DNA from: a virus
Lineage: Duplodnaviria; Caudoviricetes
IMG/VR virus record: IMGVR_UViG_3300033073_001109
Coordinates: 1-64,000 of that record
Direction: 5' to 3' (one strand)
Length of the DNA stretch: 64,000 nucleotides
Of the stretch, positions 32,758-50,507 are shown piece after piece; position 1 is the first letter of the stretch, and each line of letters starts with the position of its first letter. The notes under the pieces were generated by a model. The model was not told the DNA's origin. It saw only the letters and a list, made by a program, of their open reading frames with translations, and ran no database searches. Made by a program: the position numbers and the translations under genes.

Positions 32758-32771
32758 GACTTAAATATTCC

Positions 32772-33914
32772 ATGGATAACTTTTATTGTGCTGCCCCCTG
32801 GCGCGGCCTGCATATCAATCCCCGTGGCGATGTAAAAACCTGCTGTGCAGGCAATCCTAATATGCTGGGAAATCTTAATTCAGCAAAGATTGAAGATGTG
32901 CTCAATAGCCCTAAGTTGCAAGAAATAAGACAAACAGTTGCTCGCGGTCAAAAACATCCTTATTGTTCTAACTGTCAAAGTGCTGAAGCCATGGGCGGGT
33001 CAAGTGAACGGTCCTGGCACAACAACCAAAACCCACAGTTTGATTACACCACTGCTGGGGATCGTTATCACTATCCGGTGATCATGGATGTACGTTGGAA
33101 TACCACGTGCAATTTGAGTTGCAACTATTGTAGCGAATGGGCCAGTTCAAAATGGTCAGCACTCAAAAGCATACCCTTCAAATCTGGTACCAGACCTTAC
33201 TATGATGCTGTATGTGACTTTGTGGAGCAACACCGTGAACACATACAGGAAGTTGCGCTGGTAGGCGGTGAACCACTGCTGCTTCCTGAAAACGAAAGAT
33301 TGTTGGATGTCATCCCTGAAAACGCTATTGTTACATTGATTACCAACATGGCAGTGGATTTTGAAAACAACAAAGTATTTCGTAAGATTGCTCAACGTCG
33401 TCGAGTTGGTTGGTCAATGAGTTTTGAAAACATAGCACAACGATACGAATATGTGCGCTATGGCGGAGACTGGCAATTGCTAAAACATAACTTGGAGATT
33501 ATAAATGACCTTAAGAAGAATCAAGGGCATTGGGGCGGCATTCATGCGGTTTATAACATCTACTCGGCAACTAGGCTTTGTGAGCTTTACCAGTTTGCGA
33601 AAGAAACTGAAACCAGTATACTATGGCAAAAATTGTTTGACCCGGATTGTCTTGATCCTTTCTTACACGGGCCTAAAGTTGCCCAATTGGCAATGGCTGA
33701 AATTGATCGCTTGGTTGCAATGGGACTCATTAGTAACCATGAACAGAATTTGTTTGCAACATCACGTCAGCGATTTAAAGAAATACAAAAGCCCAGCGTA
33801 GGCATTGAAGCACAATTCCGACAACACATTTCAAATATTGAAAGTAAATATCACACAAACAAGGCAGGCCAATTTGAACAACTGTGGCCTGAACTAGCGT
33901 TCTTATGCAAGTAA
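32772..33914 (+). CDS. Radical SAM protein with N-terminal SPASM/twitch-like Cys cluster
   Basis: CAAPW...GDVKTCC...CSNC; CNLSCNYC; GGEPLL; TAAATA 4 nt before ATG 32772. Confidence 0.85.
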   Translation: MDNFYCAAPWRGLHINPRGDVKTCCAGNPNMLGNLNSAKIEDVLNSPKLQEIRQTVARGQKHPYCSNCQSAEAMGGSSERSWHNNQNPQFDYTTAGDRYHYPVIMDVRWNTTCNLSCNYCSEWASSKWSALKSIPFKSGTRPYYDAVCDFVEQHREHIQEVALVGGEPLLLPENERLLDVIPENAIVTLITNMAVDFENNKVFRKIAQRRRVGWSMSFENIAQRYEYVRYGGDWQLLKHNLEIINDLKKNQGHWGGIHAVYNIYSATRLCELYQFAKETETSILWQKLFDPDCLDPFLHGPKVAQLAMAEIDRLVAMGLISNHEQNLFATSRQRFKEIQKPSVGIEAQFRQHISNIESKYHTNKAGQFEQLWPELAFLCK

Positions 33915-35491
33915 AAAGTCATTTAGAGACAGTGCTGGTCAAAGCACCGCACAGAAAACAAACCTACACTGAGCAAGAGTTAGAAGATTTTGCTCGATGT
34001 GCTGATCCTGTGGACGGGCCCATGTACTTCATGGACAACTTCTTCTACATACAGCACCCCACACGCGGCAAAATGCTATACCACCCGTTTGAATACCAGC
34101 GAAGATTGATTGAGAACTATCACACAAATCGTTTTTCAATATCGTTGATGCCTCGACAAACAGGTAAATCGACGTCGGCTGCTGGATATTTGTTATGGTA
34201 TGCTATGTTTATACCAGACTCTACTATTCTTATTGCGGCACACAAGTATCTTGGTGCACAGGAAATCATGCAACGTATTCGTTATGCATACGAACTGTGT
34301 CCCAACCACATACGAGCAGGTGCTACTAGTTACAACAAAGGCTCAATAGAGTTTGAAAACGGTAGTCGTATTGTAAGTCAAACCACAACTGAAAACACTG
34401 GTCGTGGTATGTCTATCACGCTCCTATACTTGGACGAGTTTGCGTTCGTAAGACCCACTATTGCGTCAGAGTTTTGGACTTCTATTACTCCTACGCTGAG
34501 TACCGGTGGTAAGGCCATTATCACTAGTACCCCAAACTCCGACGAAGATCAGTTTGCGTTGATTTGGAAAGGTGCTAACAAAACAGAAGATGAATACGGC
34601 AATCCTCGTCCAGGCGGAGTTGGTATCAACGGATTCAAAGCATACAGAGCATATTGGCGAGAGCATCCTGATCGTGATGATACGTGGGCAGAAGAACAAC
34701 GGGCACAGTTAGGTGAAGAACGTTTTCGACGAGAAATGGACTGTGAGTTTGTTATCAATGACGAAACTTTGATAAGTCCGATTAAATTACTAGAACTTGA
34801 AGGCTCAGATCCTATTCGCAAAACTGGACAGATACGTTGGTATAGGCCCATACGCAAAGATGGAATATATGTTGTGAGCCTTGATCCTAGTTTGGGTACT
34901 GGCGGTGATCCTGCAGCCATACAAGTTTTTGAAGCCGATACCACAGAACAAGTGGCCGAGTGGAAACACAACAAAACAGACATCCCCACACAGGTCAAGC
35001 TCATGGCAGATATTGTAAAAGAGATACATGACATTACTAAAAACGACAAAACTATATACTACAGCATTGAAAACAACACCCTAGGCGAGGCGGCTCTGAT
35101 TAGTATCAACGAATACGGAGAAGAAAATATTCGAGGGTATTTCTTAAGCGACAATTCCATAGTTAATTCAGTGGGACGCAGGTTTCGCAAAGGGTTTACG
35201 ACCACAAACAAAAGCAAACTAACTGCCTGCGCTAAGTTTAAAATACTGGTTGAAAGTGGGCGTATGAAGTTGCATTCACGTTCTTTGATCAGCGAACTAA
35301 AGAACTTTGTAGCAATAGGCAGTAGCTACGAAGCAAAACTTGGGGAAACTGACGATCTTGTAATGGCGACTTTGTTAAGTGTGCGCATGATGATTTTGCT
35401 ACAGAGCTACCACACTGAACTAGACGGGCATTTGCGCGATCATACAGACAACATAATTGATCCCATGCCTTTCATCAGTGTAATGCGCTAA
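33905..35491 (+). CDS. gp17: Terminase large subunit
   Basis: PRQTGKST Walker A; LYLDEFAF Walker B; STPN coupling motif; SLDP RNase H domain; DDLVMA. Confidence 0.95.
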   Translation: MQVKSHLETVLVKAPHRKQTYTEQELEDFARCADPVDGPMYFMDNFFYIQHPTRGKMLYHPFEYQRRLIENYHTNRFSISLMPRQTGKSTSAAGYLLWYAMFIPDSTILIAAHKYLGAQEIMQRIRYAYELCPNHIRAGATSYNKGSIEFENGSRIVSQTTTENTGRGMSITLLYLDEFAFVRPTIASEFWTSITPTLSTGGKAIITSTPNSDEDQFALIWKGANKTEDEYGNPRPGGVGINGFKAYRAYWREHPDRDDTWAEEQRAQLGEERFRREMDCEFVINDETLISPIKLLELEGSDPIRKTGQIRWYRPIRKDGIYVVSLDPSLGTGGDPAAIQVFEADTTEQVAEWKHNKTDIPTQVKLMADIVKEIHDITKNDKTIYYSIENNTLGEAALISINEYGEENIRGYFLSDNSIVNSVGRRFRKGFTTTNKSKLTACAKFKILVESGRMKLHSRSLISELKNFVAIGSSYEAKLGETDDLVMATLLSVRMMILLQSYHTELDGHLRDHTDNIIDPMPFISVMR

Positions 35492-35499
35492 ATAATGCT

Positions 35500-37248
35500 A
35501 TGGCAACTACAGAAACAATTTCACAAGATCTGTATGATTTTTTGGTAACAAAAAACTTTGATCCTGAGCCTTTGGACGCCAAAGGCAATCCTTCCGACGC
35601 AGAAGATGCAAAAGTTTTCAGTTTTGATTATGTCAGCACTTCGGGCAAAAATTACGGCACTGGCGTGATCGTAATTGCCGATCCCGGCGATGTTAAATTC
35701 TTCTACGGGGACAACCTGGGTCGCAGTATGGAAGAACCAGACAAATCAGAATGGTTCAAGTTTTTGGAAGAACTCAGCGATTTCGCTACTCAACATCGGC
35801 ATGATTGGACACCCAGCGATATCAGCAAACTCAAGTATACCATGGCCGGCATTGCTGCCATTAAGGAAGGTTTGTTTGAAGGTTATTACGGTACTCGCAA
35901 AGTCAGTTACATGGGCGAGCAAACTGAAGCACGACTGGTAATCAAGCACAATCGTGTGCTAGGTGAAAATGACAAACGCTATCGTTATGTAGAAAGTCTG
36001 TTTATTGAAACAGCCGACAGCGAACGTTTTAAACTGCCATTTAAGAATCTCAGTGGCGGCCGTGCCATGTTAGAGCATGTACGTCAGGGCGGTAAGCCTT
36101 ATGATGTGCGCGGCAATCACATTGCACAATTGGTCACAGAAGCAGCCACTTTGGCTCGTTTCAATCGTGCCAGCCAGCATAGAATCTTAGAAGGTTCTAC
36201 AAAACAACTAGCCGAGCAAGCAGCACAATATTATCAACAAGTGCGTGAAACCATCCAGCATTTGAGCACTGGTCGCGGCTATACAAAATACTTTGAGTCT
36301 TGGAGCCCAGTAGACGTTGCTCCGCAGGAAGGCCTAGTGGAAGATATCAAGACTCTGTTTATTGAACAAACCTTGGACACAAGGATAGAACAGGCATTGC
36401 CTATATTGGCTCGCCTTCAACAACAAGGAAATGACATGAAAGAAGCACAAATATTTGAAAGTTGGATCGAGCAATTATCCGAAGGTACTTGGGCATTGCC
36501 AGAAACTCCCGAACAACAGGCTCAGTTACGCGAACTAATGAGCAAGCCGCTAGCAGCCGGGCCCAACGGTAGTTATGCCACCGAAGAACTCTACGACCTA
36601 GTAGGCGATGATCAGTTGTTCGATATCATTACCGAAATGGCCAAACAAAATCCTGATGCTAATATCTGGGAAGACACCGATGTACAACGTAGACTGGAAG
36701 AGTTAGGCGTGTACATGGTTAATCCAGAAACACCAGAAGAGCCTTCTACACCTGAAACTGGGTCTGTAACAGAAAGTATAATGATAGATGAATCGGGAAA
36801 TACTTGGGATCACTTGTTGGATAGATTTAAGCACGAAGTTCAAAATTTCCGAAACGGTGAAGAATTAGACAGCGATTTGTATGATGCATTGTTTGACTAC
36901 TATAGTCAGCATGGTGTAATGCCATACGGTGTGGCCAAAGCACGCACTGGGGATCCATTTAACTGGGTAAGCCATCGTTTAGCACAAGACCTTAAGATTG
37001 ACGAAGCAGACAACATAGCTCATTTTGTTGAAGAAGGCAGTTGCAATCACACCATGGAAGGTGAATACTGTCCCGAACACGGACTTGCTGAATGTGGATA
37101 CATAGAAACAACCACAGCCGGAGGGATGGCTCCTGTTATGGGCGAAGCCGATGACCCTATTAATTACAATGCCGCAATGACCGGTTCATACTATGAGTCA
37201 AAGCAAGATGAATTGACCAGAATGAAAAAATTAGCTTTGGGCAAGTAA
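35500..37248 (+). CDS. Hypothetical protein (582 aa), possibly virion-associated
   Basis: TAAATA 5 nt upstream; C-terminal acidic modules, CNHT..G..CPEHG..EC motif and DELTRMKKLA. Confidence 0.7.
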   Translation: MATTETISQDLYDFLVTKNFDPEPLDAKGNPSDAEDAKVFSFDYVSTSGKNYGTGVIVIADPGDVKFFYGDNLGRSMEEPDKSEWFKFLEELSDFATQHRHDWTPSDISKLKYTMAGIAAIKEGLFEGYYGTRKVSYMGEQTEARLVIKHNRVLGENDKRYRYVESLFIETADSERFKLPFKNLSGGRAMLEHVRQGGKPYDVRGNHIAQLVTEAATLARFNRASQHRILEGSTKQLAEQAAQYYQQVRETIQHLSTGRGYTKYFESWSPVDVAPQEGLVEDIKTLFIEQTLDTRIEQALPILARLQQQGNDMKEAQIFESWIEQLSEGTWALPETPEQQAQLRELMSKPLAAGPNGSYATEELYDLVGDDQLFDIITEMAKQNPDANIWEDTDVQRRLEELGVYMVNPETPEEPSTPETGSVTESIMIDESGNTWDHLLDRFKHEVQNFRNGEELDSDLYDALFDYYSQHGVMPYGVAKARTGDPFNWVSHRLAQDLKIDEADNIAHFVEEGSCNHTMEGEYCPEHGLAECGYIETTTAGGMAPVMGEADDPINYNAAMTGSYYESKQDELTRMKKLALGK

Positions 37249-38434: not shown

Positions 38435-39202
38435 ATGTCAAAGTTAAGTTGGACTCAATCTGGAGATTTTATAGATCTTGCAGTAATCAACTGCGAGGTC
38501 TATGAATATTTTGTATCTAATCTCAATTTGCATAACATAAATCAATATGCAACAGTTGATTTTGGATTTGCTTCTATGCGAGATGAACTGTTAGAAAAGT
38601 TCAGTGTGTTTCGCAATTTTGTAAAAACAAAATTGAGATCGGACATATTTGACTTTGACATAGATCCTAGCAATCAAGAACACTTAAACAAGTTGCATAG
38701 AGCATGGGTAAAAATTCATCAGCAATATCCAAACATAGGCAATGTATTTGATCGATCTCTAGTTAATCGAATTAACATGTTAATTCATTACATTGAAGAT
38801 TTGTCGCAAGATTTTGTGGTTGAAACTATTAATCCAGAACGCTGTTTTAAAAATATTTTTGGTACAAAAATACTCAATCACGGTGTCTGGAACGTATCCA
38901 TTCCCTATCTAAATTTAGGAAGAAGCTCGTATCGAAAATGGGTCAATGGTGACTGTGTCAATGACTCAGATACCAATAACTTTGATGACTTGTATACACG
39001 ATTGCAAATCAAGACGGTGCCTAGTGAGCAATACTCTTTGCCACCTCAGTTTAAGTCTTGGTGTCAGCAGTACGGATTAGAGTGTGTTGGCGATAGTTTA
39101 CCACTAGCAAATTTTGACAACCTAGAACAAAACATGCTAAAATACAGACAACTTATATTGACAAATTCGTTGATAGAAAATAATTTTATAATTTTGGAGT
39201 GA
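38435..39202 (+). CDS. Hypothetical accessory protein (distant paralogue of 52904..53767)
   Basis: LNKLH...IN.LIH..E...Y.NLG...LP.A pattern. Confidence 0.65.
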   Translation: MSKLSWTQSGDFIDLAVINCEVYEYFVSNLNLHNINQYATVDFGFASMRDELLEKFSVFRNFVKTKLRSDIFDFDIDPSNQEHLNKLHRAWVKIHQQYPNIGNVFDRSLVNRINMLIHYIEDLSQDFVVETINPERCFKNIFGTKILNHGVWNVSIPYLNLGRSSYRKWVNGDCVNDSDTNNFDDLYTRLQIKTVPSEQYSLPPQFKSWCQQYGLECVGDSLPLANFDNLEQNMLKYRQLILTNSLIENNFIILE

Positions 39203-40260: not shown

Positions 40261-40514
40261 GCGAGTATATCGTAGCAGAACTTTGGGGCGAACTCAAACG
40301 CTATGTAAACACAGTTGATCGCGCAGAAGCCGCAGAAACTGTAGTACAAATTTTGATGGATAATGATTCAGATGTTGAAGACATTCGTGACGCCTTTAAA
40401 GGCGACTCAGACATCAAACGTGCGCTAACTTCGTATCTTGACAACGACAACGATTATTCCGAAGAAGAGGAAGAAGAGGAAGAAGAGTACGAAGACGATG
40501 ACTGGGAAAACTAA
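40257..40514 (+). CDS. Small acidic hypothetical protein
   Basis: 85 aa with poly-Glu/Asp tail; ATGA overlap with uvsX. Confidence 0.7.
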   Translation: MSEYIVAELWGELKRYVNTVDRAEAAETVVQILMDNDSDVEDIRDAFKGDSDIKRALTSYLDNDNDYSEEEEEEEEEYEDDDWEN

Positions 40515-41745
40515 AACCTTTCCGATAGAGAATTCATCAGCATGTGTATTCAAATGGGCGTGGAATACCTTTAGGTTGTACAACGCCCAATCATCTAGTT
40601 GTCACCGAGTGACACCAGTGGTTGTACCGTTGGACAAGTTTGACAATTTTCACAATACTCCTGAGATTTTAGTTGACCGGCAAAAGATGCTGGAAGGATC
40701 GTGGCCAGGACGTGGCTGCGAATATTGTCAAAGCATAGAGTCTCAGGGAGGTACCAGCGATAGGTTATACCACAATCAAATTCCTGGACTTACGCCCATT
40801 GATTTTGATGGTATAAAACCAGTTACTCCCCGAATCAGTGAAATCTATCTGCACAATACTTGCGATCTTGCCTGTGTATATTGCTTACCAATATTCAGTG
40901 AGAAGATCAATCAGGAAATAAAAAAGTTTGGCCCTTACCCAGTTGGTATTGCCGCGGTCCAAGAACACTCACAGCGAGAACAGTATTTCGACGCCTATGT
41001 GAACTGGTTGAAAGACAATGGGTCCAAATTGTCACGACTGAGTATACTAGGTGGCGAGCCTTTGTTACAAAAGGAGTTTTGGACCTTGTTGGATTTGTTA
41101 CCTGAAATTGCTAACAAAGATTTAGAACTAGCAATTAATACCAATCTAAATTGCAATTCTGCTATCATGGACAGATTCGTTGCTAAAAGTCGAGAACTCA
41201 CAGTGTCAAGATCTATCAAGCAAGTGTTTGTGTCGGCCAGTTTGGACTGTTGGGGGCCACAAGCAGAGTTTGTTCGATATGGGTTAAATCTCGGCACCTG
41301 GCAGAAAAATTTTGAGCGTTTGGTAGAAAACCGCTGGATAGCAACGTCGGTGCATCAGGTGTTAACAGCATTGACTATAAAAACCTCACTGGAGCTACAA
41401 AATAAAATTGCAGAATACAAAAAGTTCAATCCTAAGATATTGCAAGAATATTATTTTGTTGACAGTGGTTATGAAAAAGTATACCATCCAGAAATATTTG
41501 GCAATGAGTTTTTCCATGACAAATTGCATGAATTACTGCGTCTGTTTCCAGTTACAACAGAGTGGGACCATGAATCTCGAAAACGGCTCGAAGGTATTGT
41601 GAATTTCATAGATCAGTCCAGCGCAGATCTTCCGAGGCTACAGATGTTGAAACAGACTTTAGACACAATAGATCATAGAAGAAACACTGATTGGAAAAAG
41701 TTGTGGCCAGAGATCAATGACTATTTTGTTGAAAACAAGGTTTAA
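40498..41745 (+). CDS. Radical SAM protein
   Basis: CVFKW...SSSCH...CEYC...E N-terminal cluster; CDLACVYC; GGEPLL; SLD.WG.QAE.VR.G. Confidence 0.85.
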   Translation: MTGKTKTFPIENSSACVFKWAWNTFRLYNAQSSSCHRVTPVVVPLDKFDNFHNTPEILVDRQKMLEGSWPGRGCEYCQSIESQGGTSDRLYHNQIPGLTPIDFDGIKPVTPRISEIYLHNTCDLACVYCLPIFSEKINQEIKKFGPYPVGIAAVQEHSQREQYFDAYVNWLKDNGSKLSRLSILGGEPLLQKEFWTLLDLLPEIANKDLELAINTNLNCNSAIMDRFVAKSRELTVSRSIKQVFVSASLDCWGPQAEFVRYGLNLGTWQKNFERLVENRWIATSVHQVLTALTIKTSLELQNKIAEYKKFNPKILQEYYFVDSGYEKVYHPEIFGNEFFHDKLHELLRLFPVTTEWDHESRKRLEGIVNFIDQSSADLPRLQMLKQTLDTIDHRRNTDWKKLWPEINDYFVENKV

Positions 41746-41747: not shown

Positions 41748-42200
41748 ATGTGGTATAGTAAAGTTACATCAGATCTAGGAAACATACCAGACTTTATAGC
41801 CTATTACGATCGCGAACTAGAAGAAGCCAAGAAAGAATGTAGAATTGGCGGCATAGTAGAACGTAATATCAAAGAACTACCTGGGCACACAGAGCACAGA
41901 TTCAATCAATTACAAGAGATTGAGGCGGTGCTCAATTATCTCAACATTCAACTTCGTAAGATTCGTAGGAAACATTTCCAAAAGTACCTTGAAGCCTATG
42001 CTCGTGCCTTGACCTCTAGAGACGCAGAAAAATATGTAGACGGCGAAGACGAAGTTGTGGACTTTGAAACCATAATTAACGAAGTAGCTTTTTTGCGCAA
42101 TCGTTGGCTAGGCGTGATGAAAGGTTTAGAAACCAAACAGTGGCAAATGGGTCACATAGTTCGTCTAAGAACTGCTGGCATGGAAGACATCCAGGTGTAA
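41748..42200 (+). CDS. uvsY: Recombination mediator
   Basis: Helical ~150 aa; L.YLNI.LRKIR..HF.KYLE.Y.RAL.SRDAEKYVDGE; located near uvsX. Confidence 0.75.
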   Translation: MWYSKVTSDLGNIPDFIAYYDRELEEAKKECRIGGIVERNIKELPGHTEHRFNQLQEIEAVLNYLNIQLRKIRRKHFQKYLEAYARALTSRDAEKYVDGEDEVVDFETIINEVAFLRNRWLGVMKGLETKQWQMGHIVRLRTAGMEDIQV

Positions 42201-42207
42201 ATACCTG
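42192..42207 (+). promoter_or_regulatory. Late promoter TAAATA in a short inverted repeat heading the glycan cassette
   Basis: CAGGT-GTAAAT-ACCTG; ATG at 42209. Confidence 0.55.
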
Positions 42208-42208
42208 C

Positions 42209-42964
42209 ATGAAAATTGTAGTTGTTACTGGCGGCTTTGACCCGCTACACTCGGGACACCTAGCCTACTTCAAAGCTGCCAAAAAACTTGGCGATAGACT
42301 CATTGTAGGGCTTAACTCAGATGAATGGCTGACCCGTAAAAAAGGTCGTCCTTTTATGCCTATGAGTGAACGCTTTGCATTGGTCAGTGCCATTGGGGTA
42401 GTTGACGAAGTTGTTGTTTACAACGACGATGATGGCTCTAGCTGTGATGCCATTCGTTTGGTTAAAAAGCGACATCCTGATGCACACATAATCTTTGCCA
42501 ATGGCGGAGATAGAACCAAAGACAACATTCCCGAAATGGTGTTTGACGACGTTGAGTTTGTGTTTGGTGTGGGCGGCGAAGATAAGAAAAACAGTTCAAG
42601 TTGGATTTTAGAAGATTGGAAAAAACCCAAAACTCAACGCAATTGGGGATACTATCGTGTGCTACATGAAGTTGGTGCTCGCACCAAGCTCAAAGAACTC
42701 ACAGTAAATCCCAAAACATGCTTGAGCATGCAACGCCACGATCAGCGAGCAGAATTTTGGTTTGTTGCTGAAGGCGAGGCCTCTGTTTATACCTTAGATG
42801 CCTCTAGCGATCATGATTTAGTAGGAACATACAGTCAACACGAGTACATATGGATTGATCGTAACCAATGGCACATGCTTTGTAACGAAACAAGTGAACC
42901 TCTAAAGTTAATTGAAATACAGTACGGAGATGATTGTGTAGAAGAGGACATAGAACGTCGATGA
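42209..42964 (+). CDS. Bifunctional HIGH-family nucleotidyl(cytidylyl)transferase (RfaE/TagD-like) plus type II phosphomannose-isomerase-like cupin
   Basis: VVTGGFDPLHSGH, VGLNSDEWL.RKKG.PFM, FANGGDR; C-term WG.Y.VL...LSMQRH..R.EFW.V.EG. Confidence 0.85.
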   Translation: MKIVVVTGGFDPLHSGHLAYFKAAKKLGDRLIVGLNSDEWLTRKKGRPFMPMSERFALVSAIGVVDEVVVYNDDDGSSCDAIRLVKKRHPDAHIIFANGGDRTKDNIPEMVFDDVEFVFGVGGEDKKNSSSWILEDWKKPKTQRNWGYYRVLHEVGARTKLKELTVNPKTCLSMQRHDQRAEFWFVAEGEASVYTLDASSDHDLVGTYSQHEYIWIDRNQWHMLCNETSEPLKLIEIQYGDDCVEEDIERR

Positions 42965-43641
42965 AGCCTATTCCTATTTTTATTGGCTATGACCCTAGAG
43001 AAGCAGTGGCTTATCATACCTGCGTAAATTCTATAATCAGACATGCATCAAAGCCTGTTGCTTGTATTCCGCTGGCCCTGAATTTGTTTGAAGACTACAA
43101 AGAAACACACACTGATGGTTCAAACCAGTTTATCTACAGTCGTTTCCTTGTGCCTCATCTAATGAATTACGCCGGTTGGGCTATATTTATCGACGGTGAC
43201 ATGATTTTGAGATCAGACATTGTGGAACTATGGGAACTTGCTGAGTCAGACAAAGATGTCATGGTTGTCAAGCACGACTATCAAACTCGCATGACAGAAA
43301 AGTATCTTGGAGCCCGAAATGAAAATTACCCCAGAAAAAATTGGTCTAGTGTTATTCTATGGAATTGCAGCAGTTATCCTAATCGCAAACTTACTCCTGA
43401 TTTTGTTCAACGATCAACCGGTGCCGAATTACATCGTTTTACCTGGCTAGAAGATCGACGCATAGGAGAACTACCACCGGAGTGGAATTGGTTACCTGAT
43501 GAGTTTGGTGCCAATGCTGACGCTAAGTTACTGCATTACACTTTAGGAACTCCGTGTTTTCATGAGTTTGCCACTACACCGCAAGGCGAAGAATGGCATA
43601 GAGAACACATGTTAACTGATTACTGTCAACAACGAGTATGA
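42961..43641 (+). CDS. Glycosyltransferase (GT-A, GT8-like)
   Basis: IFIGYD.RE.VAY, F.YSRFLVP, FIDGDMI, YPRKNWSS..LWNC, WN.L, HYT.G.P. Confidence 0.85.
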   Translation: MKPIPIFIGYDPREAVAYHTCVNSIIRHASKPVACIPLALNLFEDYKETHTDGSNQFIYSRFLVPHLMNYAGWAIFIDGDMILRSDIVELWELAESDKDVMVVKHDYQTRMTEKYLGARNENYPRKNWSSVILWNCSSYPNRKLTPDFVQRSTGAELHRFTWLEDRRIGELPPEWNWLPDEFGANADAKLLHYTLGTPCFHEFATTPQGEEWHREHMLTDYCQQRV

Positions 43642-44606
43642 TGGAAGAAGATCTAGCACCACTGATCAAGCACGAGCTTGACATGGTACCTCCTGAGATA
43701 TCCAAACTGTTTCGAGACATATTAAAATATAGAGTGGATCCCGGTGGCGATTATTATCAAATTACTCGAGAACACTTAGAACAGGCCATTGATAATCTAT
43801 ATCAACCCAACGTTTATGCAGTTGATGTAGAGCCTGGTGAATTTAGACACAAAGACAAAGGACACATGTACGATCCTATATTACAAAGTTTTGTTCAAGG
43901 AGCCGGCGGCTGCATCACATCTTGGAACAAGGTAGAACAATCAATGATCCCAGTGGTTCTGAGAGGCATTACTAAACGCAAAGAAATGGCAGCATGTCGA
44001 GCTGTTGGTAGAGATTTTTATTACATTGACACAGGCTATTTTGGCAATGGCAAGAAGAAGACATATCATCGCATTACCAAAAATGACGTACAATGGTTTG
44101 GTGCTATCATTGATAGACCTAGAGATCGTCTTGAAAAAACAGGAGTACAAATTCGCAAATGTCGTGCCGATGGTAGTAAAATTTTGTTGGCCCCGCCTAG
44201 TCAAAAACTTTTAAATTTATACAATATCAATTTGGAAACCTGGTTAGAGAATGTAAAAAAAGAATTGTCTCAATACACTGATAGAGAAATTGTAGTAAGA
44301 CTCAAACAAGGAAGAGCAGTACGACAATCCACAGATACCATGGAAATGGCTCTAGCCGACAATGTATATTGTTTGGTGACGTTTTCTAGCATTGCTGCTA
44401 CAGAAGCATTGTTGTTCGGCAAACCAGCAATCACTCTTGGTCCAAATGCCGCGGCACCTCTTTGTAGTCAACATCTAAACCAAATCGAAAATCTTCGAAT
44501 ACCTACTCTAGACGAAATAGATGCCTGGGCTAGAAACCTTGCATATTGCCAGTTCACAGAACCTGAAATGCGCGACGGAACCGCCTGGCGGATATTAAAT
44601 GCTTGA
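43638..44606 (+). CDS. KpsS/KpsC-like (capsule biosynthesis family) putative glycosyltransferase, paralogue A
   Basis: YIDTGYFG, ILLAPP, IVVRLK, VTFSSIAA.EA...GKP, LAYCQFT..EM..G.AW. Confidence 0.6.
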   Translation: MMEEDLAPLIKHELDMVPPEISKLFRDILKYRVDPGGDYYQITREHLEQAIDNLYQPNVYAVDVEPGEFRHKDKGHMYDPILQSFVQGAGGCITSWNKVEQSMIPVVLRGITKRKEMAACRAVGRDFYYIDTGYFGNGKKKTYHRITKNDVQWFGAIIDRPRDRLEKTGVQIRKCRADGSKILLAPPSQKLLNLYNINLETWLENVKKELSQYTDREIVVRLKQGRAVRQSTDTMEMALADNVYCLVTFSSIAATEALLFGKPAITLGPNAAAPLCSQHLNQIENLRIPTLDEIDAWARNLAYCQFTEPEMRDGTAWRILNA

Positions 44607-45522
44607 TTGTGTAGTCTATATTAGCTCTGTGGCTAATCCACACAAGCATCCAAGAAAGGTTGCCTGTTTGGAAAGTTTTGCTAGAGGTGTAAGCAAGCTA
44701 GGACACACAGTAAAGATAGAAACCAATTATCGTTATACTCCTAGCCGAGTTGCAGTTATCTTGGGCTGGATTTCCAACGGCGGTGGCGGCAAAAACATAG
44801 AACTCAGACGACAGATTATTTCAGAACAAGCACGTTATAAAAAACATACTATGTGTGTGGATGCCAGTTGCTGGAAGTATATAGATACAAACAGTTTATA
44901 TCTTCGCTACAGCATTGGTGGACCGTTTTACGATCGAGCACAGTATGCTAATGCCAACAGCACAAACGCCAAGTGGAATGAAATTAGCCAACAGTTAGGT
45001 GTTAGACTACAAGAACCACAATCCAATGTCAATGGTCATATACTTGTGTGTATGCAACGTGACGGCGGATTTGCAATGAAAAATCTGAATCCCCTGGCCT
45101 GGACACAGGCTAAGATACAAGAAATACGTAGGTATACTAATCGACCAATTAAAGTAAGGCCTCACCCTGGCGCATATAATATGAAGGATTTTGATCCATT
45201 GAGATCCCAATGGGGCAAACAACATGTTGAAGTTCTGCACCCTGAAGAGTCTAGACTCTTTGACAACCTACAAGGGGCTCACAGCGCAGTATTTTTTAAT
45301 TCAAGTGCAAGTGTGGCAGCAGTTTGTGAAGGAATACCAATATTTGTGGATGACCGTAGTTGTGTGAGTTTTGATGTAGCAAATACTGATGTCGCCAACA
45401 TTGAATCTCCGGCAAAATTCAACAGGGATCAATGGCTTTGGAATTTAGCTGCCGCACACTGGAGTGACGCTGAAGGAGCCAAAGGTCGCATTTGGCAAAA
45501 GTTTACTCCTTTTATTTTTTAA
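44599..45522 (+). CDS. KpsS/KpsC-like putative glycosyltransferase, paralogue B
   Basis: ILVCMQ, IKVRPHP, VFFNSSASV.AV.EGIP, LAAAHWS..E...G..W. Confidence 0.6.
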   Translation: MLDCVVYISSVANPHKHPRKVACLESFARGVSKLGHTVKIETNYRYTPSRVAVILGWISNGGGGKNIELRRQIISEQARYKKHTMCVDASCWKYIDTNSLYLRYSIGGPFYDRAQYANANSTNAKWNEISQQLGVRLQEPQSNVNGHILVCMQRDGGFAMKNLNPLAWTQAKIQEIRRYTNRPIKVRPHPGAYNMKDFDPLRSQWGKQHVEVLHPEESRLFDNLQGAHSAVFFNSSASVAAVCEGIPIFVDDRSCVSFDVANTDVANIESPAKFNRDQWLWNLAAAHWSDAEGAKGRIWQKFTPFIF

Positions 45523-46075
45523 CCACAATCAAATCATAGTTGTGGCCTTTGACCCAGTGCCACTTGTTAGTTTTGTCAAACACACTGATTTCCTCCCATA
45601 CTATGGTTACGTCCATACAACTGAGTATTTTTTCTCTCCACCATGCTGGTGGCTTCACAATCAAGTGAGCATTGCGACCGTCTGGTAGATTCTTTTTTGC
45701 AGGATAACAAGCAATTCTAAAACACCCACAACGTACCATCAAGTTGCTGATTGTTTTCAGTGTTTGATCAAGATGTGCAGGTTCAATGTGTTCTATTGCA
45801 TCTGTACTAACAACAACATCTACAGGATTGCTAGGCAAAGTCTGAAACTCAACATTGCCGGGATCATATCCTGCAACAGAGATTTCGGGATGCAGTTTAG
45901 AAATTGTAGCAATTAAACCTCCCTTGCCGCAACCAAAATCTAACAATGTGCTGGGCTTGTATTCAGCAATAAATTTTTCTACAATCTTGTATGCTTTGGC
46001 ACCGTGGTTGAATTTTTTGTCAGAACTGTGCAGTTGTTCTAACTGAGCTTGGTATGCTTTGTCGATCAGTGCCAT
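45512..46075 (-). CDS. Class I SAM-dependent methyltransferase
   Basis: LLDFGCGKG, GYDPG, D...STDAIEHIEP, NAHL.V.PP.WW; likely start MALIDK at 46075. Confidence 0.85.
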   Translation of the reverse strand: MALIDKAYQAQLEQLHSSDKKFNHGAKAYKIVEKFIAEYKPSTLLDFGCGKGGLIATISKLHPEISVAGYDPGNVEFQTLPSNPVDVVVSTDAIEHIEPAHLDQTLKTISNLMVRCGCFRIACYPAKKNLPDGRNAHLIVKPPAWWREKILSCMDVTIVWEEISVFDKTNKWHWVKGHNYDLIVVKK

Positions 46076-46713
46076 CCCATGATCCAATCATCTTTTACTT
46101 GATCTAGTTTACTCATGCCCCAATCTTCTAACAGTCCTATTGCGGCAAATTGTCCATAATCTTTGCTATACATGTCGTGTGGTTTTTGCTCAATAACCAC
46201 TATAGGTCGACAACGTCTTATTGTCTGTTCTGCACCTTGTAACACTCGATATTCATATCCTTCACAATCAATTTTTATGTAATCAACGTTGTTAAGATTT
46301 AAACTATCAAGTCGACGAATTTCTGTATTACCTTGTTTGCTAGTAGGATCCACGTGAGTATGACCAGTGTTGCCTTCAGTAATAATCATGTTCACTGTGC
46401 CTTCTTGGTCGCCTAGGGCAATACTGTGGACCTCAAGATTTTTTGCAAATACATTTCGAGCCAAGCATTCTCTAAACATAGCCACTGGTTCAAAAGCATG
46501 TACTGTAATAAAGTGTTTAACAAGATCACGACTCCACAACCCAACGTTGGCGCCAATATCGAGTGCCACTCGTTTTTGTTTAACGTGTGCCAAGCTACGA
46601 TTTCTAACTTGCCACTGATACGCAGCCGGGCCGTTTTTAGCAATGCTTTTGTCAAGCATTTTAGGAAAGTGTGATTCCATGTCAGGAAACCACCAACCAA
46701 GATGATTATACAT
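46066..46713 (-). CDS. FkbM-family methyltransferase
   Basis: ALDIGANVG, V.AFEP, ALGD, RRLDS, DYIKIDCEGYE..VL.GA...I....P..VIE. Confidence 0.9.
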   Translation of the reverse strand: MYNHLGWWFPDMESHFPKMLDKSIAKNGPAAYQWQVRNRSLAHVKQKRVALDIGANVGLWSRDLVKHFITVHAFEPVAMFRECLARNVFAKNLEVHSIALGDQEGTVNMIITEGNTGHTHVDPTSKQGNTEIRRLDSLNLNNVDYIKIDCEGYEYRVLQGAEQTIRRCRPIVVIEQKPHDMYSKDYGQFAAIGLLEDWGMSKLDQVKDDWIMGWH

Positions 46714-47506
46714 TATAGGTATCCTTTAAAATTTTCATTGCACGACCGTTTTCTAATTCTTTGTAGTGAAACTGTCCGTAAGCCAAATGTTTGACCCATG
46801 CGTATCTTAGTTCTTCTTCTGGCCACCAGGGATTATCTATCATACTGAGATCTTTGTTGCTCACTGGCCGAGCTGCATTGCATGGGGCCAGTACAAAAGT
46901 AGGCACACCTGCAATCACTGACTCAGTGGCTGCTATGCTATTATACGTTACTAAAGCATGAGCGTCGCTGAGCGCTTGTTCTAAAGTGTCGTGATTTCTA
47001 GCTTGGCGACTTTTGGTGCGTTGTCTAACAACCACTTCTCTGTCAGTGTACTTTTTAATTTCCATCACAGTGTCTGTGATCCATTGTTGCAGATCTATAC
47101 CGTAAAACACACAAGGTTTTTCGTCTGGCGCAGCCACAATGATTTTAGATCCTTTGTTCCTTCGTTTGAGTGCAATGGCCATACGCTGCCAACGGTCTGG
47201 AGGCCGCGGAATAATTTCGTTGTGTTGTAAGTCGTTGAATACTACTCTATTCCAAATCTTTGCACCGTGCGGATTTAACGGCCCTCGACGATTGCCGAAG
47301 TACCCAGAATCAAAATAAAAAAACGGACGTTGATCTTCCCAACAACGTTTGATTATTTTGTGTTTCATGATGCCGCGTATTACCAACAAATTGTTGTTGT
47401 CCTCGTAGTTCCAAGATTCTAAGTTAGTGGGCTCAGCACCGCAACCACGAGCAAAACGATCAATGTAGTTGTCTTCATCTTTTTTGTTTAAAAATATCCA
47501 CGTCAT
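46706..47506 (-). CDS. KpsS/KpsC-like putative glycosyltransferase, paralogue C
   Basis: YFDSGYFG, IIVAAP, VVVRQR, VTYNSIAA.ES..AGVP, LAYGQF..EL..G. Confidence 0.6.
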   Translation of the reverse strand: MTWIFLNKKDEDNYIDRFARGCGAEPTNLESWNYEDNNNLLVIRGIMKHKIIKRCWEDQRPFFYFDSGYFGNRRGPLNPHGAKIWNRVVFNDLQHNEIIPRPPDRWQRMAIALKRRNKGSKIIVAAPDEKPCVFYGIDLQQWITDTVMEIKKYTDREVVVRQRTKSRQARNHDTLEQALSDAHALVTYNSIAATESVIAGVPTFVLAPCNAARPVSNKDLSMIDNPWWPEEELRYAWVKHLAYGQFHYKELENGRAMKILKDTYNV

Positions 47507-48306
47507 TGCCAGTATGCCTCGGATCTTGCAATTTTTAAATCTGAGCCAGGACTACGTCCCCGATGTTTTCTTGAACCTTTGAGATGATCAAGATATGCAC
47601 CCCAGTCAGAATTTATCAATGGATGACCTTCCCCAGTAATAAGATGACTAGACCAATCGTGTTCATGCATTTTGATACGTTGGCGAACAGCATCAAAAAC
47701 AAAACTGTCATGCCATTCATTCAGTTGAAAAATGCCCAATTCGGCTTGATCATAAAAACGTTGAAACTCTTTGAGAAACAAACGAGTAGAATCGCTGCGT
47801 AGGTTCATGGCGTAAAGTCCGCACTCAGTGAATTTGCCACGTCTTCCCAAGAAGCATAGGTCTTTGGCAACTGGGCACAGGCGGTCAATTTCGGCTACAG
47901 TGATAGGACTGTGACAAACCATGTCGGCGTCCATCCACAATAGCCAATCGGCGTCAACATTTTCGGCAGCGGCAAATATGGCATATACCTTGTGAGCAAA
48001 ACGCACAGCGTCCCATTTAAACCCTTTGCCTGCGTCTTTTCTACGACTGCGCACTGGATCAGAACTTACGTCGCCATTGGCTCGAGGCACTCCGCGCCAT
48101 TGATTTTTAAATGCAACCAAAGCCGGACTGGCTTGTTCTAGATCAAAAACTTTGACATTGGGGGCATTACAGTCTACAGCACAACCTTCTGCGTAAACCA
48201 TCAAGGTCACTGATTTGGGCCATGTTTTGCAAAAGGTTTTGATCATTCTGCGTCCATAATTCTCATAGCCCTGAGCATTAAAAGTGGTAACTACAGCGTA
48301 CTTCAT
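47503..48306 (-). CDS. Glycosyltransferase (GT-A, DxD)
   Basis: VVTTFN..GY..YG, DAVRFAHKVYA, WLLWMDAD, WHDS.VFD, DH.KG.RK. Confidence 0.75.
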   Translation of the reverse strand: MKYAVVTTFNAQGYENYGRRMIKTFCKTWPKSVTLMVYAEGCAVDCNAPNVKVFDLEQASPALVAFKNQWRGVPRANGDVSSDPVRSRRKDAGKGFKWDAVRFAHKVYAIFAAAENVDADWLLWMDADMVCHSPITVAEIDRLCPVAKDLCFLGRRGKFTECGLYAMNLRSDSTRLFLKEFQRFYDQAELGIFQLNEWHDSFVFDAVRQRIKMHEHDWSSHLITGEGHPLINSDWGAYLDHLKGSRKHRGRSPGSDLKIARSEAYWQ

Positions 48307-48317
48307 GATAGATACTT

Positions 48318-49154
48318 ATGATCAAAAACATAGCCTATTTTCCTAATCAATGTGCATTGAATTCGGGACCGGTAATGACTGCATTAAAATTCAGTTTGGG
48401 GAGAGCCGGTGTGCGTATGATAGAAAATAGCATGGAATGTGATGCGGCAGTGATTTGGTCAGTGTTATGGTCTGGCCGTATGTCGGCCAACAGAGAGGTC
48501 TACCGACACTATAGAAATCAAAACAAACCAGTGATCATTGTTGAAATAGGTGCATTGCACAGAGGGAGAACTTGGAAAATATCAGTCAACAACGTTACAT
48601 CCAATGGTTACTATGGACATCTAACTGACCTTGATTGGGACCGTCCCAGTAAGTTGGGTATCAAACTCCTAAAACCCAGCGTCACACAACCCAACGTGTT
48701 GATCGCTTTGCAACATCACAAAAGCATGCAGGTAGATTCAATACCAGACATGACTGAATGGCTTCGTACCACTGTTCAGATCATTAAAAACAACACGGAT
48801 CGACCCATAACAGTGCGGCCACATCCTAGATCTCGAATAGAAATTCCAACCGGACTGACAATAGAAACTCCCAAGCCTGTGCCTGGAACCTATGACAGTT
48901 TTGACATGCATTTTAATTGTCATGCTGTGGTCAACTACAACTCGGGTCCTGGCATACAAGCAGCCATTGCTGGCGCTCGTCCTCTAGTGGATTTTTCTAG
49001 TCTGGCTTATCCGGTGAGCATTGGATTTCCTGATATTGAACAACCATACGATCGAGATCGTGATTTGTGGCTCACACAAATTTGCCACACAGAATATACA
49101 GTGGAAGAACTACAAATAGGTTTATGGCTAAAAAGAATAGAATTGGCGCTGTGA
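48318..49154 (+). CDS. KpsS/KpsC-like putative glycosyltransferase, paralogue D
   Basis: IVEIG, VLIALQ, ITVRPHP, VVNYNSGPGI.AAIAG, ICHTEYT.EE...G. Confidence 0.6.
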   Translation: MIKNIAYFPNQCALNSGPVMTALKFSLGRAGVRMIENSMECDAAVIWSVLWSGRMSANREVYRHYRNQNKPVIIVEIGALHRGRTWKISVNNVTSNGYYGHLTDLDWDRPSKLGIKLLKPSVTQPNVLIALQHHKSMQVDSIPDMTEWLRTTVQIIKNNTDRPITVRPHPRSRIEIPTGLTIETPKPVPGTYDSFDMHFNCHAVVNYNSGPGIQAAIAGARPLVDFSSLAYPVSIGFPDIEQPYDRDRDLWLTQICHTEYTVEELQIGLWLKRIELAL

Positions 49155-49858
49155 TAGATTGTGCTTGTGTAATACACAGCACACTTTACAGTTGGACGTA
49201 TGTTGAACGATTAACCAACATGATACAACGGCACATGCCCAAAGAAATACGAATGCATGTATACACTGAGCATGACCGAAGCGTACCACCACAGTATGTC
49301 AAACATTGTTTGGAAGACTGGAAAGGCATTGGCGGACCCAAGCGCAGTTGGTGGTACAAGATGCAATTGTTTAATACCAAATTTCATCAAGGACCATTGT
49401 TGTATTTTGATCTAGACTGTGTGATTAGAAAAGATTTATCATGGGTGCTAGATAGTTCGCCAGAACTGTTTTGGGCCATCAGAGATTTTAAATACCTTCA
49501 AAATTCTAGTGTACAAACCTTGAACAGCAGTGTAATGTGGTGGGACACCAGAGATTTTGCAGACATATGGGACAATTTTACAAAGTTAGATATCAATGAA
49601 ACTGTGAGAAAATTTCCTGGTGACCAAGATTATCTAACTCAGTGCATACCGTTTAATCGCAGAAGATTTTTTGAAGATAGACACTTTCAAAGTTATCGCT
49701 GGCAAGTAATGGATGGTGGATACGATTTTGCTAGACGCCGTCACAAGCAACCTGGGTCAGGTGCTAAAATTGCTGACGACACATCCGTGATTGTATTTCA
49801 TGGCAAACCCAAACCTGATCAAGTCAAAGATCCACTGATTCAGCAAGAATGGATTTAG
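49151..49858 (+). CDS. Glycosyltransferase (GT-A, GT8-like)
   Basis: WWYK.QLF, LYFDLD.VI, NSS.MWW, GDQDY, FHGKPKP; GTG start overlapping the upstream TGA. Confidence 0.8.
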   Translation: MIDCACVIHSTLYSWTYVERLTNMIQRHMPKEIRMHVYTEHDRSVPPQYVKHCLEDWKGIGGPKRSWWYKMQLFNTKFHQGPLLYFDLDCVIRKDLSWVLDSSPELFWAIRDFKYLQNSSVQTLNSSVMWWDTRDFADIWDNFTKLDINETVRKFPGDQDYLTQCIPFNRRRFFEDRHFQSYRWQVMDGGYDFARRRHKQPGSGAKIADDTSVIVFHGKPKPDQVKDPLIQQEWI

Positions 49859-50459
49859 TGTTCTGGCTTCTAACTTTGTTGTTGTAAAAATCTTCAACCA
49901 TAGACCATTTATACAGTGGAATGTAGTCTAAAAATAAATGTGTGCGAATACTGCGTCCACGGTTAGTACTGCCGTGCATGGTCATAACATTAAGCTCGTA
50001 CAACTGACCGGGTTCCATGTGTATTGATTCGCCATCAACTTGTGTAAAAGCATCTGGATTGGTTGCAATAGGCACAATAATTCTGTGAGCATGTTTTTGC
50101 CACCATGGTGCATCAATATGCAGATCTTGTTGACCGTTGGGTAGTAGACAAATATAATGGCCTTTGAACCAGCGTGTTTCGGGAAACACATCTTTTAAGT
50201 AGTCGGCTAACTCGTCTGCTAGGCTAACTAAATTTTGTGTATCAGGCCGGTACCTGAGTTCTTGGTTGTAGGTCCACTTCCAGTACGTCCAGGCCAGATT
50301 GTTGCGCAATACTTGTATCACGTAACTGTCTTTGTTGTTCTGGGGAAATATTGTATCGATCAGCGGATCTGAGTAGTCGTAACTCTCTACTGCCCGCACT
50401 AATCTTTTGAAAATTTCTGTGTTGGCAATGCTGTGAAGTTTGCGATTTTGTAGTTCCAT
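49824..50459 (-). CDS. 2OG-Fe(II) oxygenase, aspartyl/asparaginyl beta-hydroxylase-like
   Basis: L.PNG...LHID...RI.VPI.TNP...H.E.G..YELN...MHG..N.G...R.HL.LD. Confidence 0.75.
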   Translation of the reverse strand: MELQNRKLHSIANTEIFKRLVRAVESYDYSDPLIDTIFPQNNKDSYVIQVLRNNLAWTYWKWTYNQELRYRPDTQNLVSLADELADYLKDVFPETRWFKGHYICLLPNGQQDLHIDAPWWQKHAHRIIVPIATNPDAFTQVDGESIHMEPGQLYELNVMTMHGSTNRGRSIRTHLFLDYIPLYKWSMVEDFYNNKVRSQNTKSILAESVDL

Positions 50460-50478
50460 TGTAGTATTTAAGTATTAC

Positions 50479-50507
50479 TTGACCAATAATTGCCTTTTTG
50501 CTATAAT
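50479..50507 (+). promoter_or_regulatory. Sigma70 promoter
   Basis: TTGACC-N17-TATAAT with TGC. Confidence 0.85.

Follow-up and report, generated by a model that had tools for sequence, protein, structure and literature searches.

The locus described here raises the question of what a phage builds with a block of sugar-handling enzymes, and on which acceptor. The block, eleven genes (g01-g11), occupies 42.2-50.5 kb of the window, the whole 64,000-nucleotide stretch of DNA that was analysed, which derives from an uncultured, freshwater, jumbo phage.

Gene content of the island

The block encodes one cytidylyltransferase-like/cupin fusion, three GT-A glycosyltransferases, four KpsC/WbbB-fold paralogues, two methyltransferases and one oxygenase. 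The first-pass annotation had put the number of genes at about 10, which is corrected here to eleven, and its enzyme inventory is borne out by Pfam, TIGR, PHROG and fold matches. The genes and their flanks are as follows.

41748..42200, plus strand: UvsY-like recombination mediator (phrog_231, E 1e-12), the left conserved flank of the island, kept in 45 related loci
42209..42964, plus strand: g01, HxGH nucleotidyltransferase (RfaE-II/TagD/ECT-like) with PMI-type cupin (PF01467, PF01050)
42961..43641, plus strand: g02, GT8-family GT-A glycosyltransferase with DxD motif (PF01501, 31.1 bits; cut-off 24.3)
43638..44606, plus strand: g03, degenerate KpsC/WbbB-fold paralogue that lacks both the Q and the HP motif
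44599..45522, plus strand: g04, KpsC/WbbB-fold paralogue with RPHP, and QRDGG where QXXXD is expected
45512..46087, minus strand: g05, class-I SAM methyltransferase (PF13489, 33.5 bits; phrog_24759)
46066..46713, minus strand: g06, FkbM-family methyltransferase (PF05050, 70.8 bits; TIGR01444, 98.3 bits, cut-off 37.7)
46706..47506, minus strand: g07, KpsC/WbbB-fold paralogue, degenerate type (AF2 pLDDT 95.6)
47503..48306, minus strand: g08, GT-A glycosyltransferase, DxD within WMDADM (AF2 model pLDDT 83.8)
48318..49154, plus strand: g09, KpsC/WbbB-fold paralogue with RPHP, and QHHKS where QXXXD is expected
49067..49858, plus strand: g10, GT-A-type glycosyltransferase, DxD within YFDLDC (phrog_1962, E 7e-23)
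49824..50459, minus strand: g11, Asp/Asn beta-hydroxylase-family oxygenase (cupin, 2OG/Fe; PF05118 Asp_Arg_Hydrox, 25.6 bits, cut-off 22.6)
50479..50507, plus strand: sigma70 promoter TTGACC-17-TGCTATAAT of the small gene g12, the right boundary of the island

The two domains of g01 score 62 bits (CTP_transf_like) and 71 bits (MannoseP_isomer cupin); its matches to TIGR02199 and TIGR01479 both fall under the equivalog cut-offs, and its PDB matches are 3elb and 1coz. The enzyme would activate a phosphorylated sugar or polyol to an NDP or CDP derivative. Starting at an ATGA that overlaps the g01 stop, g02 resembles WbbM (6u4b, E 1e-4) and shares 45% identity with a gene of Pelagibacter phage Mosig. 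Profile searches, proposed earlier as the means of assigning glycosyltransferase families, place g02 in GT8 and g10 in phrog_1962; the AF2 model of g08, the first gene of a minus-strand operon in the order g08-g07-g06-g05, has a GT-A fold nearest to GT6 (probability 1.0, TM about 0.4). For g10, which likely starts at the ATG at 49124, there is no Pfam match and no PDB sequence match, and the call is based on the PHROG match and the DxD motif. Together, g02, g08 and g10 and the four paralogues, as specialised KpsC-fold transferases, would add residues singly, and g05 and g06 would O-methylate the sugars. The start of g05 is likely the ATG at 46075, and just 38 of the related loci carry this gene.

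The oxygenase g11 would add a hydroxyl group, in the source sub-lineage only. The family assigned to it in the first-pass annotation stands, with PF05118 above its cut-off, but its place in the cassette does not extend further: it is missing in 80 of 80 related loci, has only 10 clusters among 5.8 billion proteins, and is an accessory gene restricted to the sub-lineage of the source phage.

None of the eleven products has a transmembrane segment, all being predicted soluble, and the family matches to the block include no exporter, flippase or initiating transferase. The best explanation of the block is a self-contained cytoplasmic glycan-assembly island, carried by a T4-core jumbo myophage. 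The best, though tentative, reading of its product is virion glycosylation, in which the island builds a methylated sugar chain on the phage particle; an enzyme set without export parts favours it. The acceptor would most likely be at least one of the virion proteins that assemble in the cytoplasm, giving a methylated oligosaccharide coat. Mycobacteriophage virion glycosylation systems have one or two glycosyltransferases. Like the island, they combine phage-encoded glycosyltransferases with the lack of export machinery, and as Freeman et al. (2023) are summarised in PMC12619734, the enzymes are thought to be cytoplasmic and to act on virion proteins. One such mycobacteriophage has one or two glycosyltransferases (PMC11256854), whereas the island has eight transferase-type genes together with methyltransferases and a nucleotidyltransferase. 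The hosts also differ, those of the island being probably Gram-negative.

KpsC/WbbB-fold paralogues and the host envelope

The four paralogues g03, g04, g07 and g09 are related to one another, most closely g03 and g07 (37% identity, E 1e-50; other pairs E 1e-5 to 1e-11). Across the motif region they match the profiles of WbbB and KpsC weakly, and the g07 model matches the retaining beta-Kdo glycosyltransferases KpsC/KpsS (GT107), WbbB (GT99) and KrkA (GT140) over its whole length (Foldseek probability 1.0; VIA Z 11.1-11.7 across 225-236 residues). As with KpsC, the island's enzymes occur as several modules. However, the Asp nucleophile of QXXXD, which defines Kdo transferases, is found in none of the four, g03 and g07 being without any Q; RxHP is missing from these same two, and g04 and g09, which keep it, may retain a CMP-type pocket. 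The paralogues also have no match to Pfam Capsule_synth. The earlier description of these proteins as KpsS/KpsC-like therefore applies to their fold but not to their motifs. As the catalytic Asp of the KpsC/WbbB family is not kept, their chemistry is uncertain, a point that counts against the virion.

The characterised relatives suggest a second acceptor. A lipid-linked glycan of the host (LPS core, O-antigen or a capsule linker) could be lengthened or capped by the enzymes at the inner membrane face and exported by host machinery, and the altered surface would block superinfection or keep progeny off debris. Though unlikely, this alternative has several points in its favour, the first of which weighs against the virion: KpsC and WbbB, the nearest solved folds, use lipid-linked acceptors and are peripheral, without transmembrane segments (PDB titles; PMC12887879). 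In addition, g02 is similar to WbbM and to GT8 enzymes of the LPS type, and PHROG files the g10 family under 'moron, auxiliary metabolic gene and host takeover'. Relatives encode neither KdsA nor KdsB, so that a Kdo donor, if there is one, would have to come from the host, as envelope remodelling would have it. Against it, the island lacks any initiating transferase, flippase, polymerase or transporter, and in its lytic jumbo lineage it forms a conserved core rather than a variable moron. Furthermore, the KpsC-fold family to which the paralogues belong is almost entirely viral and not host-borrowed, which also favours virion glycosylation.

Late-type motifs and the timing of expression

Three late-type motifs precede genes of the island, at positions reported in the first-pass annotation (42198, 48313-19 minus and 50465-70 minus) and read directly from the sequence; a strong sigma70-type promoter lies further upstream.

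39114..39143, plus strand: sigma70-type promoter TTGACA-18-TAAAAT with upstream TG, before uvsX (11/12 matches)
42197..42203, plus strand: late-type motif GTAAATA (TAAATA 42198-42203), 5 nt before the g01 ATG, its TAA being the uvsY stop
48313..48319, minus strand: late-type variant ATAAGTA (TAAGTA 48313-48318), 6 nt before the g08 ATG and overlapping the g09 start codon on the opposite strand
50465..50471, minus strand: late-type motif TTAAATA (TAAATA 50465-50470), 5 nt before the g11 ATG

Of the 11 ATAAATA copies in the window, 10 are followed at 11-44 nt by the start of a gene on the same strand, and (A)TAAATA stands directly upstream of the genes for tail sheath, tail tube, both fibres and virion structural proteins. 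Raw 6-mers alone are not enriched, and TATAAATA occurs 3 times against 2.4 expected; the gapped pattern TAAATA-N4-8-ATG occurs 8 times against 4.1 expected, and in all eight the ATG opens a long ORF. (A)TAAATA is thus, beyond chance, a real motif class common to virion genes. Among relatives, TAAATA lies 4-6 nt before the g01 ATG in 41 of 45, even with a different upstream gene, and before g08 it is found in 45 of 74, with TAAGTA in the others shown.

The core motif is that of the gp55-dependent T4 late promoters (TATAAATA), which likewise stand upstream of virion genes, and one nearly complete relative yields a gp55-like match (E 7e-7). The island's core, (A)TAAATA, differs in being shorter and in lying 4-8 nt from the ATG at eight genes, with no Shine-Dalgarno sequence. 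Because the motif is so near the ATG, the mRNAs of g01-g04, g08-g05 and g11 would be leaderless or nearly so, a similar arrangement being seen at the fibre and virion-protein genes. By this account gp55-type motifs would start at least two units (g01-g04 and g08-g05) plus g11, favouring the virion as acceptor and telling against envelope remodelling, since a surface change just before lysis would have little time to act.

The earlier claim that the units start at late motifs and not at sigma70 promoters holds in part. The motifs at g01, g08 and g11, their conservation at the first two and the gp55-like factor agree with it, and there is no strong sigma70 site within the block. However, no convincing terminator was found between the uvsX promoter (39114) and 45522, and so g01-g04 could possibly be expressed earlier by read-through. 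Moreover, g09-g10 lack a late motif, as does the head of the Mosig module. Both the read-through and these gaps count against virion glycosylation. T4 late promoters serve non-structural genes too.

Genomic setting, spread and acceptor

In the source lineage and in Mosig, the island's neighbours are genes of replication and recombination (uvsX/uvsY, helicase, nrd, RuvC) rather than structural ones, which weighs against the virion. This position speaks for a third possibility, that the oligosaccharide is assembled by the transferases on a modified base in the phage's DNA as a means to evade restriction. DNA-modifying phage glycosyltransferases of the GT-A/GT-B types, as in T4 (alpha/beta-GT) and the 5hmC/5hmU glycan pathways, are also found near replication genes, beside polymerase, helicase, clamp, epimerase, extra glycosyltransferase and APH genes (10.1101/2023.12.21.572611), and genes similar to these neighbours occur in a hot spot of the relatives. 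A T4 gp1-like dNMP kinase is encoded at 16741-17403. DNA as the target is nevertheless very improbable. ThyA-family hydroxymethylase, TET/JBP dioxygenase and TGT/DpdA were found neither in a 331-kb, 95%-complete relative nor in four fragments, which argues against DNA glycosylation and upholds the case made in the first-pass annotation; the TET/JBP absence is weak, since the control search found that family in 0 of 14 genomes. Both methyltransferases are of FkbM or small-molecule types rather than C5-DNA methyltransferases, the late-type motifs do not fit, and the transferase-type proteins number eight (g10 by PHROG and DxD, the other seven by a match to a glycosyltransferase fold or family), well beyond what known DNA systems have.

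The island is syntenic across dozens of related IMG/VR contigs; in about 45 long loci its core is bounded by uvsY on one side and an AAA ATPase on the other. The hot spot of the relatives is variable and holds extra methyltransferases, a kinase, nucleotidyltransferases and an RmlD-like enzyme. Median identity is 55-79% for the island genes and 80-89% for uvsX, uvsY and AAA in the flanks, so that the former have diverged faster. Loci for exposed glycans usually combine a conserved frame with a variable centre. Both the conserved core with its hot spot and the faster divergence speak for the virion, and the former suits an exposed surface better than a metabolite. This bears on the idea that the glycan is placed on a non-virion target, for example a cytoplasmic protein of the host or the phage, a lipid or a small molecule (such as a glycosylated metabolite or decoy). 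Radical SAM genes near the island, the departure of the viral KpsC-fold catalytic motif from characterised enzymes, and the lack of both canonical motifs in g03 and g07, which could be non-catalytic binders, would fit such a target, but no specific acceptor or product can be named, and this reading is considered improbable.

For virion glycosylation, the late-type signal common to tail and fibre genes, in combination with the conserved enzyme block, suggests that the particle is decorated. The proposed co-occurrence of the cassette with repeat fibres is confined to the source lineage, as Mosig and the large Caulobacter phage CcrBL9 both carry reduced versions of the module and have no detectable repeat-fibre homologue; this one-lineage link counts against the reading. 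In CcrBL9, one of several large Caulobacter phages with a reduced module, the genes lie between tail genes and a lysozyme gene, a position that favours it. Fusions elsewhere of a g03-like/KpsC-fold domain to GT8 or GT4 domains point the same way.

The capsid and fibril glycan machinery of giant viruses, including chloroviruses and Megavirinae (PMC10117803), resembles the island in its clustered glycosyltransferases, sugar methyltransferases and nucleotide-sugar enzymes and in its clade-specific variation, whereas these are eukaryotic viruses whose gene sets are not homologous overall. Among giant viruses, TetV-1 encodes four KpsC-fold paralogues, which is in keeping with a glycan on the virion.

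The eleven-gene island and its enzymes

The window covers the first 64 kb of an IMG/VR contig of 82 kb; with a CheckV completeness of 24%, that contig represents only part of a jumbo phage genome. The large terminase is 53% identical to that of the Pseudomonas PA5oct group, and T4-core genes in the window encode UvsX, UvsY, a gp32-like SSB, tail sheath, tail tube, helicase and dNMP kinase. The jumbo 'moraphages', with Bacteroidota hosts (PMC12619734), were considered for their relevance and set aside as a different lineage.

The first-pass annotation had claimed a cassette of about 10 glycan genes, and the analysis confirmed 11 closely packed genes at 42209-50459, with family or fold assignments and in four orientation blocks.

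Orientation blocks of the island
g01-g04, + strand: nucleotidyltransferase-cupin fusion, GT8 enzyme, two KpsC-fold paralogues
g05-g08, - strand: two methyltransferases, KpsC-fold paralogue, GT-A-type enzyme
g09-g10, + strand: KpsC-fold paralogue, GT-A-type enzyme
g11, - strand: hydroxylase-family gene

GC content is uniform along the window (0.41-0.47), indicating that the island is no recent foreign insert. Megablast found no match to the island among 50,697 phage records, nor did tblastn with a fibre segment give one, possibly owing to the low-complexity filter; a full-text literature search found no paper on this glycan module.

Among the enzymes outside the KpsC-fold group, g01 fuses an HxGH nucleotidyltransferase to a PMI-type cupin and scores below every equivalog cut-off. 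The g02 product belongs to GT8 (PF01501, 31.1 bits against a cut-off of 24.3, with partial coverage), carries its DxD motif as FIDGDM, and matches WbbM (6u4b) at E 1e-4. The AF2 model of g08 (pLDDT 83.8) has a GT-A fold with GT6 enzymes nearest, and g10 matches a PHROG glycosyltransferase family; single-sequence PDB searches with g10 and g07 returned nothing useful. The g11 product falls in the Asp/Asn beta-hydroxylase family (PF05118, 25.6 bits against 22.6) through a match spanning only profile positions 97-154 of 157, and is represented by only 10 clusters in a large protein database.

The two methyltransferases are a class-I enzyme (g05) and an FkbM enzyme (g06; PF05050, 70.8 bits against 22.7; TIGR01444, 98.3 bits against 37.7). 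Neither is of a DNA type, which speaks against the reading that the island serves sugar hypermodification of phage DNA. The base-making enzymes of the ThyA-family hydroxymethylase, TET/JBP and TGT/DpdA groups also had no match in G001 (a 331-kb, 95%-complete relative) or in four fragments, although the TET/JBP result carries little weight because the control found this family in none of the control genomes. Hypermodification, against which the first reading had also argued, is disfavoured on both grounds.

No transmembrane segment is predicted in g01-g11 (highest 19-residue hydropathy, 1.56), and no initiating phosphoglycosyltransferase, flippase, polymerase or transporter occurs among their family matches. 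The eleven genes lack the defining membrane proteins of a bacterial surface-polysaccharide locus of either the Wzx/Wzy or the ABC-transporter type, and this want of a membrane or export part counts against a second alternative, in which the enzymes remodel the host surface.

The KpsC-fold paralogues

The genes g03, g04, g07 and g09 are paralogues of one another, and a profile built from the four recovers 4,599 cluster representatives at 50% identity; the Atlas clusters of the family are 95-100% viral and unnamed. For the g07 model (pLDDT 95.6), the top Foldseek matches are KpsC, KrkA and WbbB, over the whole length and with probability 1.0. The same three enzymes give VIA Z scores of 11.1-11.7 over 225-236 residues, whereas other GT-B enzymes reach at most 9.1 over approximately 110 residues, as half-domain matches. 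As modelled, g07 is predicted to have the modified two-Rossmann-domain (GT-B-like) fold common to KpsC, WbbB and KrkA. By sequence, the family profiles match WbbB and KpsC weakly.

Retaining Kdo transferases are defined by a QXXXD motif, which holds the Asp nucleophile, and a CMP-binding (K/R)XHP motif (PMC12887879). QXXXD does not occur in any of the four paralogues: g09 reads QHHKS and g04 QRDGG, in g03 and g07 the Q is replaced by P, and D stands at Q+4 in only 10 of 44 sequences of the g04/g09 subfamily alignment. The second motif is present in g04 and g09 as VRPHP, aligned to the HP motif of WbbB and KpsC, and is missing from g03 (VRLKQ) and g07 (VRQRT). Bearing on CMP-beta-Kdo as a possible donor, no phage KdsA or KdsB was found in the relatives. 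Pfam Capsule_synth (PF05159) matches none of the four even at E 5; it matches one of 53 family members (6e-5), and some related Atlas clusters carry it in 18% of their members. The earlier label 'KpsS/KpsC-like' is thus right for the fold but not shown for chemistry or donor, because the two motifs are only partly kept. What the module defines is a large enzyme family with a Kdo-transferase fold and a differing catalytic motif.

Natural fusions of a GT8 or GT4-type domain with a viral KpsC-fold domain (proteins P0018, P0020, P0126 and P0136) tie g02 and g03, which are separate genes with a 4 nt overlap in the window, to one pathway. Four paralogues with the same KpsC fold are also encoded by the giant virus TetV-1. 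The action of KpsC and WbbB on lipid-linked glycans keeps host-surface remodelling plausible; the near-exclusively viral distribution of the family with the KpsC fold argues against it.

Late-type motifs and sigma70-type promoters

The sequence TATAAATA by itself is not enriched in the window (3 observed, 2.4 expected). Ten of the 11 copies of ATAAATA precede a gene start on the same strand by 11-44 nt, and six further copies of TAAATA fall within 30 nt upstream of starts. In all eight matches to TAAATA-N4-8-ATG, the final ATG is the start codon of a long ORF.

TAAATA 4-8 nt before ATG, window positions
466-482
13878-13894
17693-17705
23845-23857
32762-32774
35489-35502
42198-42211
50457-50470

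Among the genes preceded by the motif are those for the two fibres, the tail sheath, the tail tube (in the shorter form GTAAATA, counted among the TAAATA matches), the head-tail adaptor and two virion structural proteins. This placement points to a TATAAATA-like -10 element of a putative T4-type late promoter upstream of virion genes.

Within the island, the 6-mer core lies 5 nt before the ATG of g01 and g11, and TAAGTA lies 6 nt before that of g08; no separate late motif precedes g09-g10. The g01 motif is retained in 41 of 45 related contigs, including those with different upstream genes, and the g08 site reads TAAATA in 45 of 74 relatives, the others shown having TAAGTA. The possibility that the g01 TAAATA is merely the uvsY stop codon was rejected, since the motif stays in place where other genes precede it. 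The claim of late-type motifs is therefore upheld at the level of sequence, by placement before virion genes and by retention at g01 and g08 in relatives, and such motifs count against host-surface remodelling. No clear late motif heads the modules of Pelagibacter phage Mosig and Caulobacter phage CcrBL9.

At 48313-48320 the start codon of g09 overlaps the g08 motif, which is on the opposite strand, and the divergent genes are 11 nt apart. Among the relatives shown, TAAATA at the g08 site goes mostly with a GTG start for g09, and TAAGTA with an ATG start. A forced trade-off between motif and start codon was rejected, as two relatives pair CATAAATA with an ATG start.

A gp55-family sigma factor was not found in the 82-kb fragment. 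With T4 gp55 as query, the 95%-complete relative gives a match that is weak yet significant (E 7e-7, with 34% identity across 79 residues); in another relative the match has an E value of 1e-4.

Match to T4 gp55 in the relative
G001:C1:303591-303821 (L094): gp55-like match within a 304-aa open frame; T4 gp55 is shorter, at 185 aa

The eight genes with TAAATA near ATG have no Shine-Dalgarno sequence, and other window genes have clear AAGGAG sites. T4-like spacing would put the transcript start at or beside the start codon, so that the phage may use leaderless late mRNAs.

The window is strongly enriched in promoters matching TTGACN-N17-TGCTATAAT (6 observed, 0.17 expected). These sigma70-type promoters serve other genes, such as the exonuclease gene, g12 (the small gene bounding the island on the right) and the AAA ATPase gene, and no strong sigma70 site was found within the island. 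A strong sigma70 promoter lies at 39114, before uvsX, with no convincing terminator between it and g04, and through it g01-g04 may also be expressed earlier. A near-consensus promoter, TTGACC-17-TATAAT, lies antisense inside g11 at 50130-50158 (+) and points towards g12; it may act as a second early promoter, or the match may be due to chance.

Recurrence, the fibres and possible targets of the proposed glycan

A scan of IMG/VR recovered at least 575 loci, and the comparison rests on the best 80, all of this lineage. Approximately 45 long loci keep the order uvsX, p85, (radical SAM), uvsY, g01-g04, (g05), g06-g10, g12 and AAA ATPase, where parentheses mark optional genes, and each of the four paralogues is retained as a separate orthologue across loci. 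Median identity is 55-79% for island genes versus 80-89% for uvsX, uvsY and the AAA ATPase gene. None of the best 80 of the at least 575 loci has g11. In relatives, a variable hot spot reaching approximately 8 kb occupies the gap between g04 and g06.

Hot spot in two related contigs
L027, 2590-9863: three methyltransferases, an APH-like kinase, an NTP-transferase/HAD fusion, a second cytidylyltransferase-like gene and an RmlD-like enzyme
L024, 11426-18216: the same gap

Reduced modules occur in cultured phages. That of Mosig holds two FkbM genes, a g08-like gene, a GT8 gene, two KpsC-fold genes, a sulfotransferase gene and a g10-like gene, and adjoins nrd and RuvC genes. That of CcrBL9 and its kin holds two KpsC-fold genes, a GT8 gene and a g05-like methyltransferase gene, and sits between tail genes and a lysozyme gene.

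The first-pass annotation had proposed the fibres as candidate acceptors. The two fibre proteins, of 2398 and 995 aa (480-10685), consist of SATGN(I/V)TGGN-type repeats and contain 108 (4.5 per 100 residues) and 38 N-x-S/T sites, respectively, approximately 5-6 times denser than in other window proteins (mean, 0.73 per 100 residues). Similar fibres occur in four long relatives, including fibres of 2352 and 2365 aa, but this co-occurrence with the island weighs little because both are lineage traits. The complete genomes of Mosig and CcrBL9, which carry the module, have no detectable fibre homologue. The fibre link is left unsupported.

Virion glycosylation is the best of several readings, and we advance it tentatively. 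It fits best because the island shares its upstream signal with virion genes and all of its enzymes are predicted to be soluble, because a conserved frame surrounds a variable tailoring centre, and because the Caulobacter module is located in the tail-lysis region. To our knowledge, mycobacteriophages are the only phages shown to glycosylate their virions with enzymes of their own.

A wider proposal, which we regard as rather unlikely, is that the near-exclusively viral KpsC-fold superfamily, with its canonical Asp nucleophile replaced, forms together with GT8-, g08- and g10-type GT-A enzymes and FkbM methyltransferases a widespread modular 'self-glycosylation' machine, which would give the particles of abundant aquatic phages (a SAR11 myophage, freshwater jumbo phages and large Caulobacter phages) a coat of lineage-variable methylated glycans. 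Such a machine would be the phage counterpart of giant-virus capsid glycosylation. If the module does glycosylate virions, particles with a glycan coat would be common in aquatic phages of very high abundance, given that 2,672 clusters at 90% identity match g08 alone with an E value of 0.001 or lower. A glycan coat would influence adsorption, the stability of particles, and their aggregation or sinking in water, and would aid evasion of recognition by hosts or grazers. The cultured carriers CcrBL9, CcrColossus and Mosig make the glycosylation question open to direct testing.

The window also holds two radical SAM genes, of which the copies in relatives are only weakly similar and shift in position.

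Radical SAM genes
32772-33914: SPASM domain, with its own late-type motif, between virion genes and the terminase gene
40438-41745: twitch domain (NF033640, 201.7 bits against a cut-off of 170), between uvsX and uvsY
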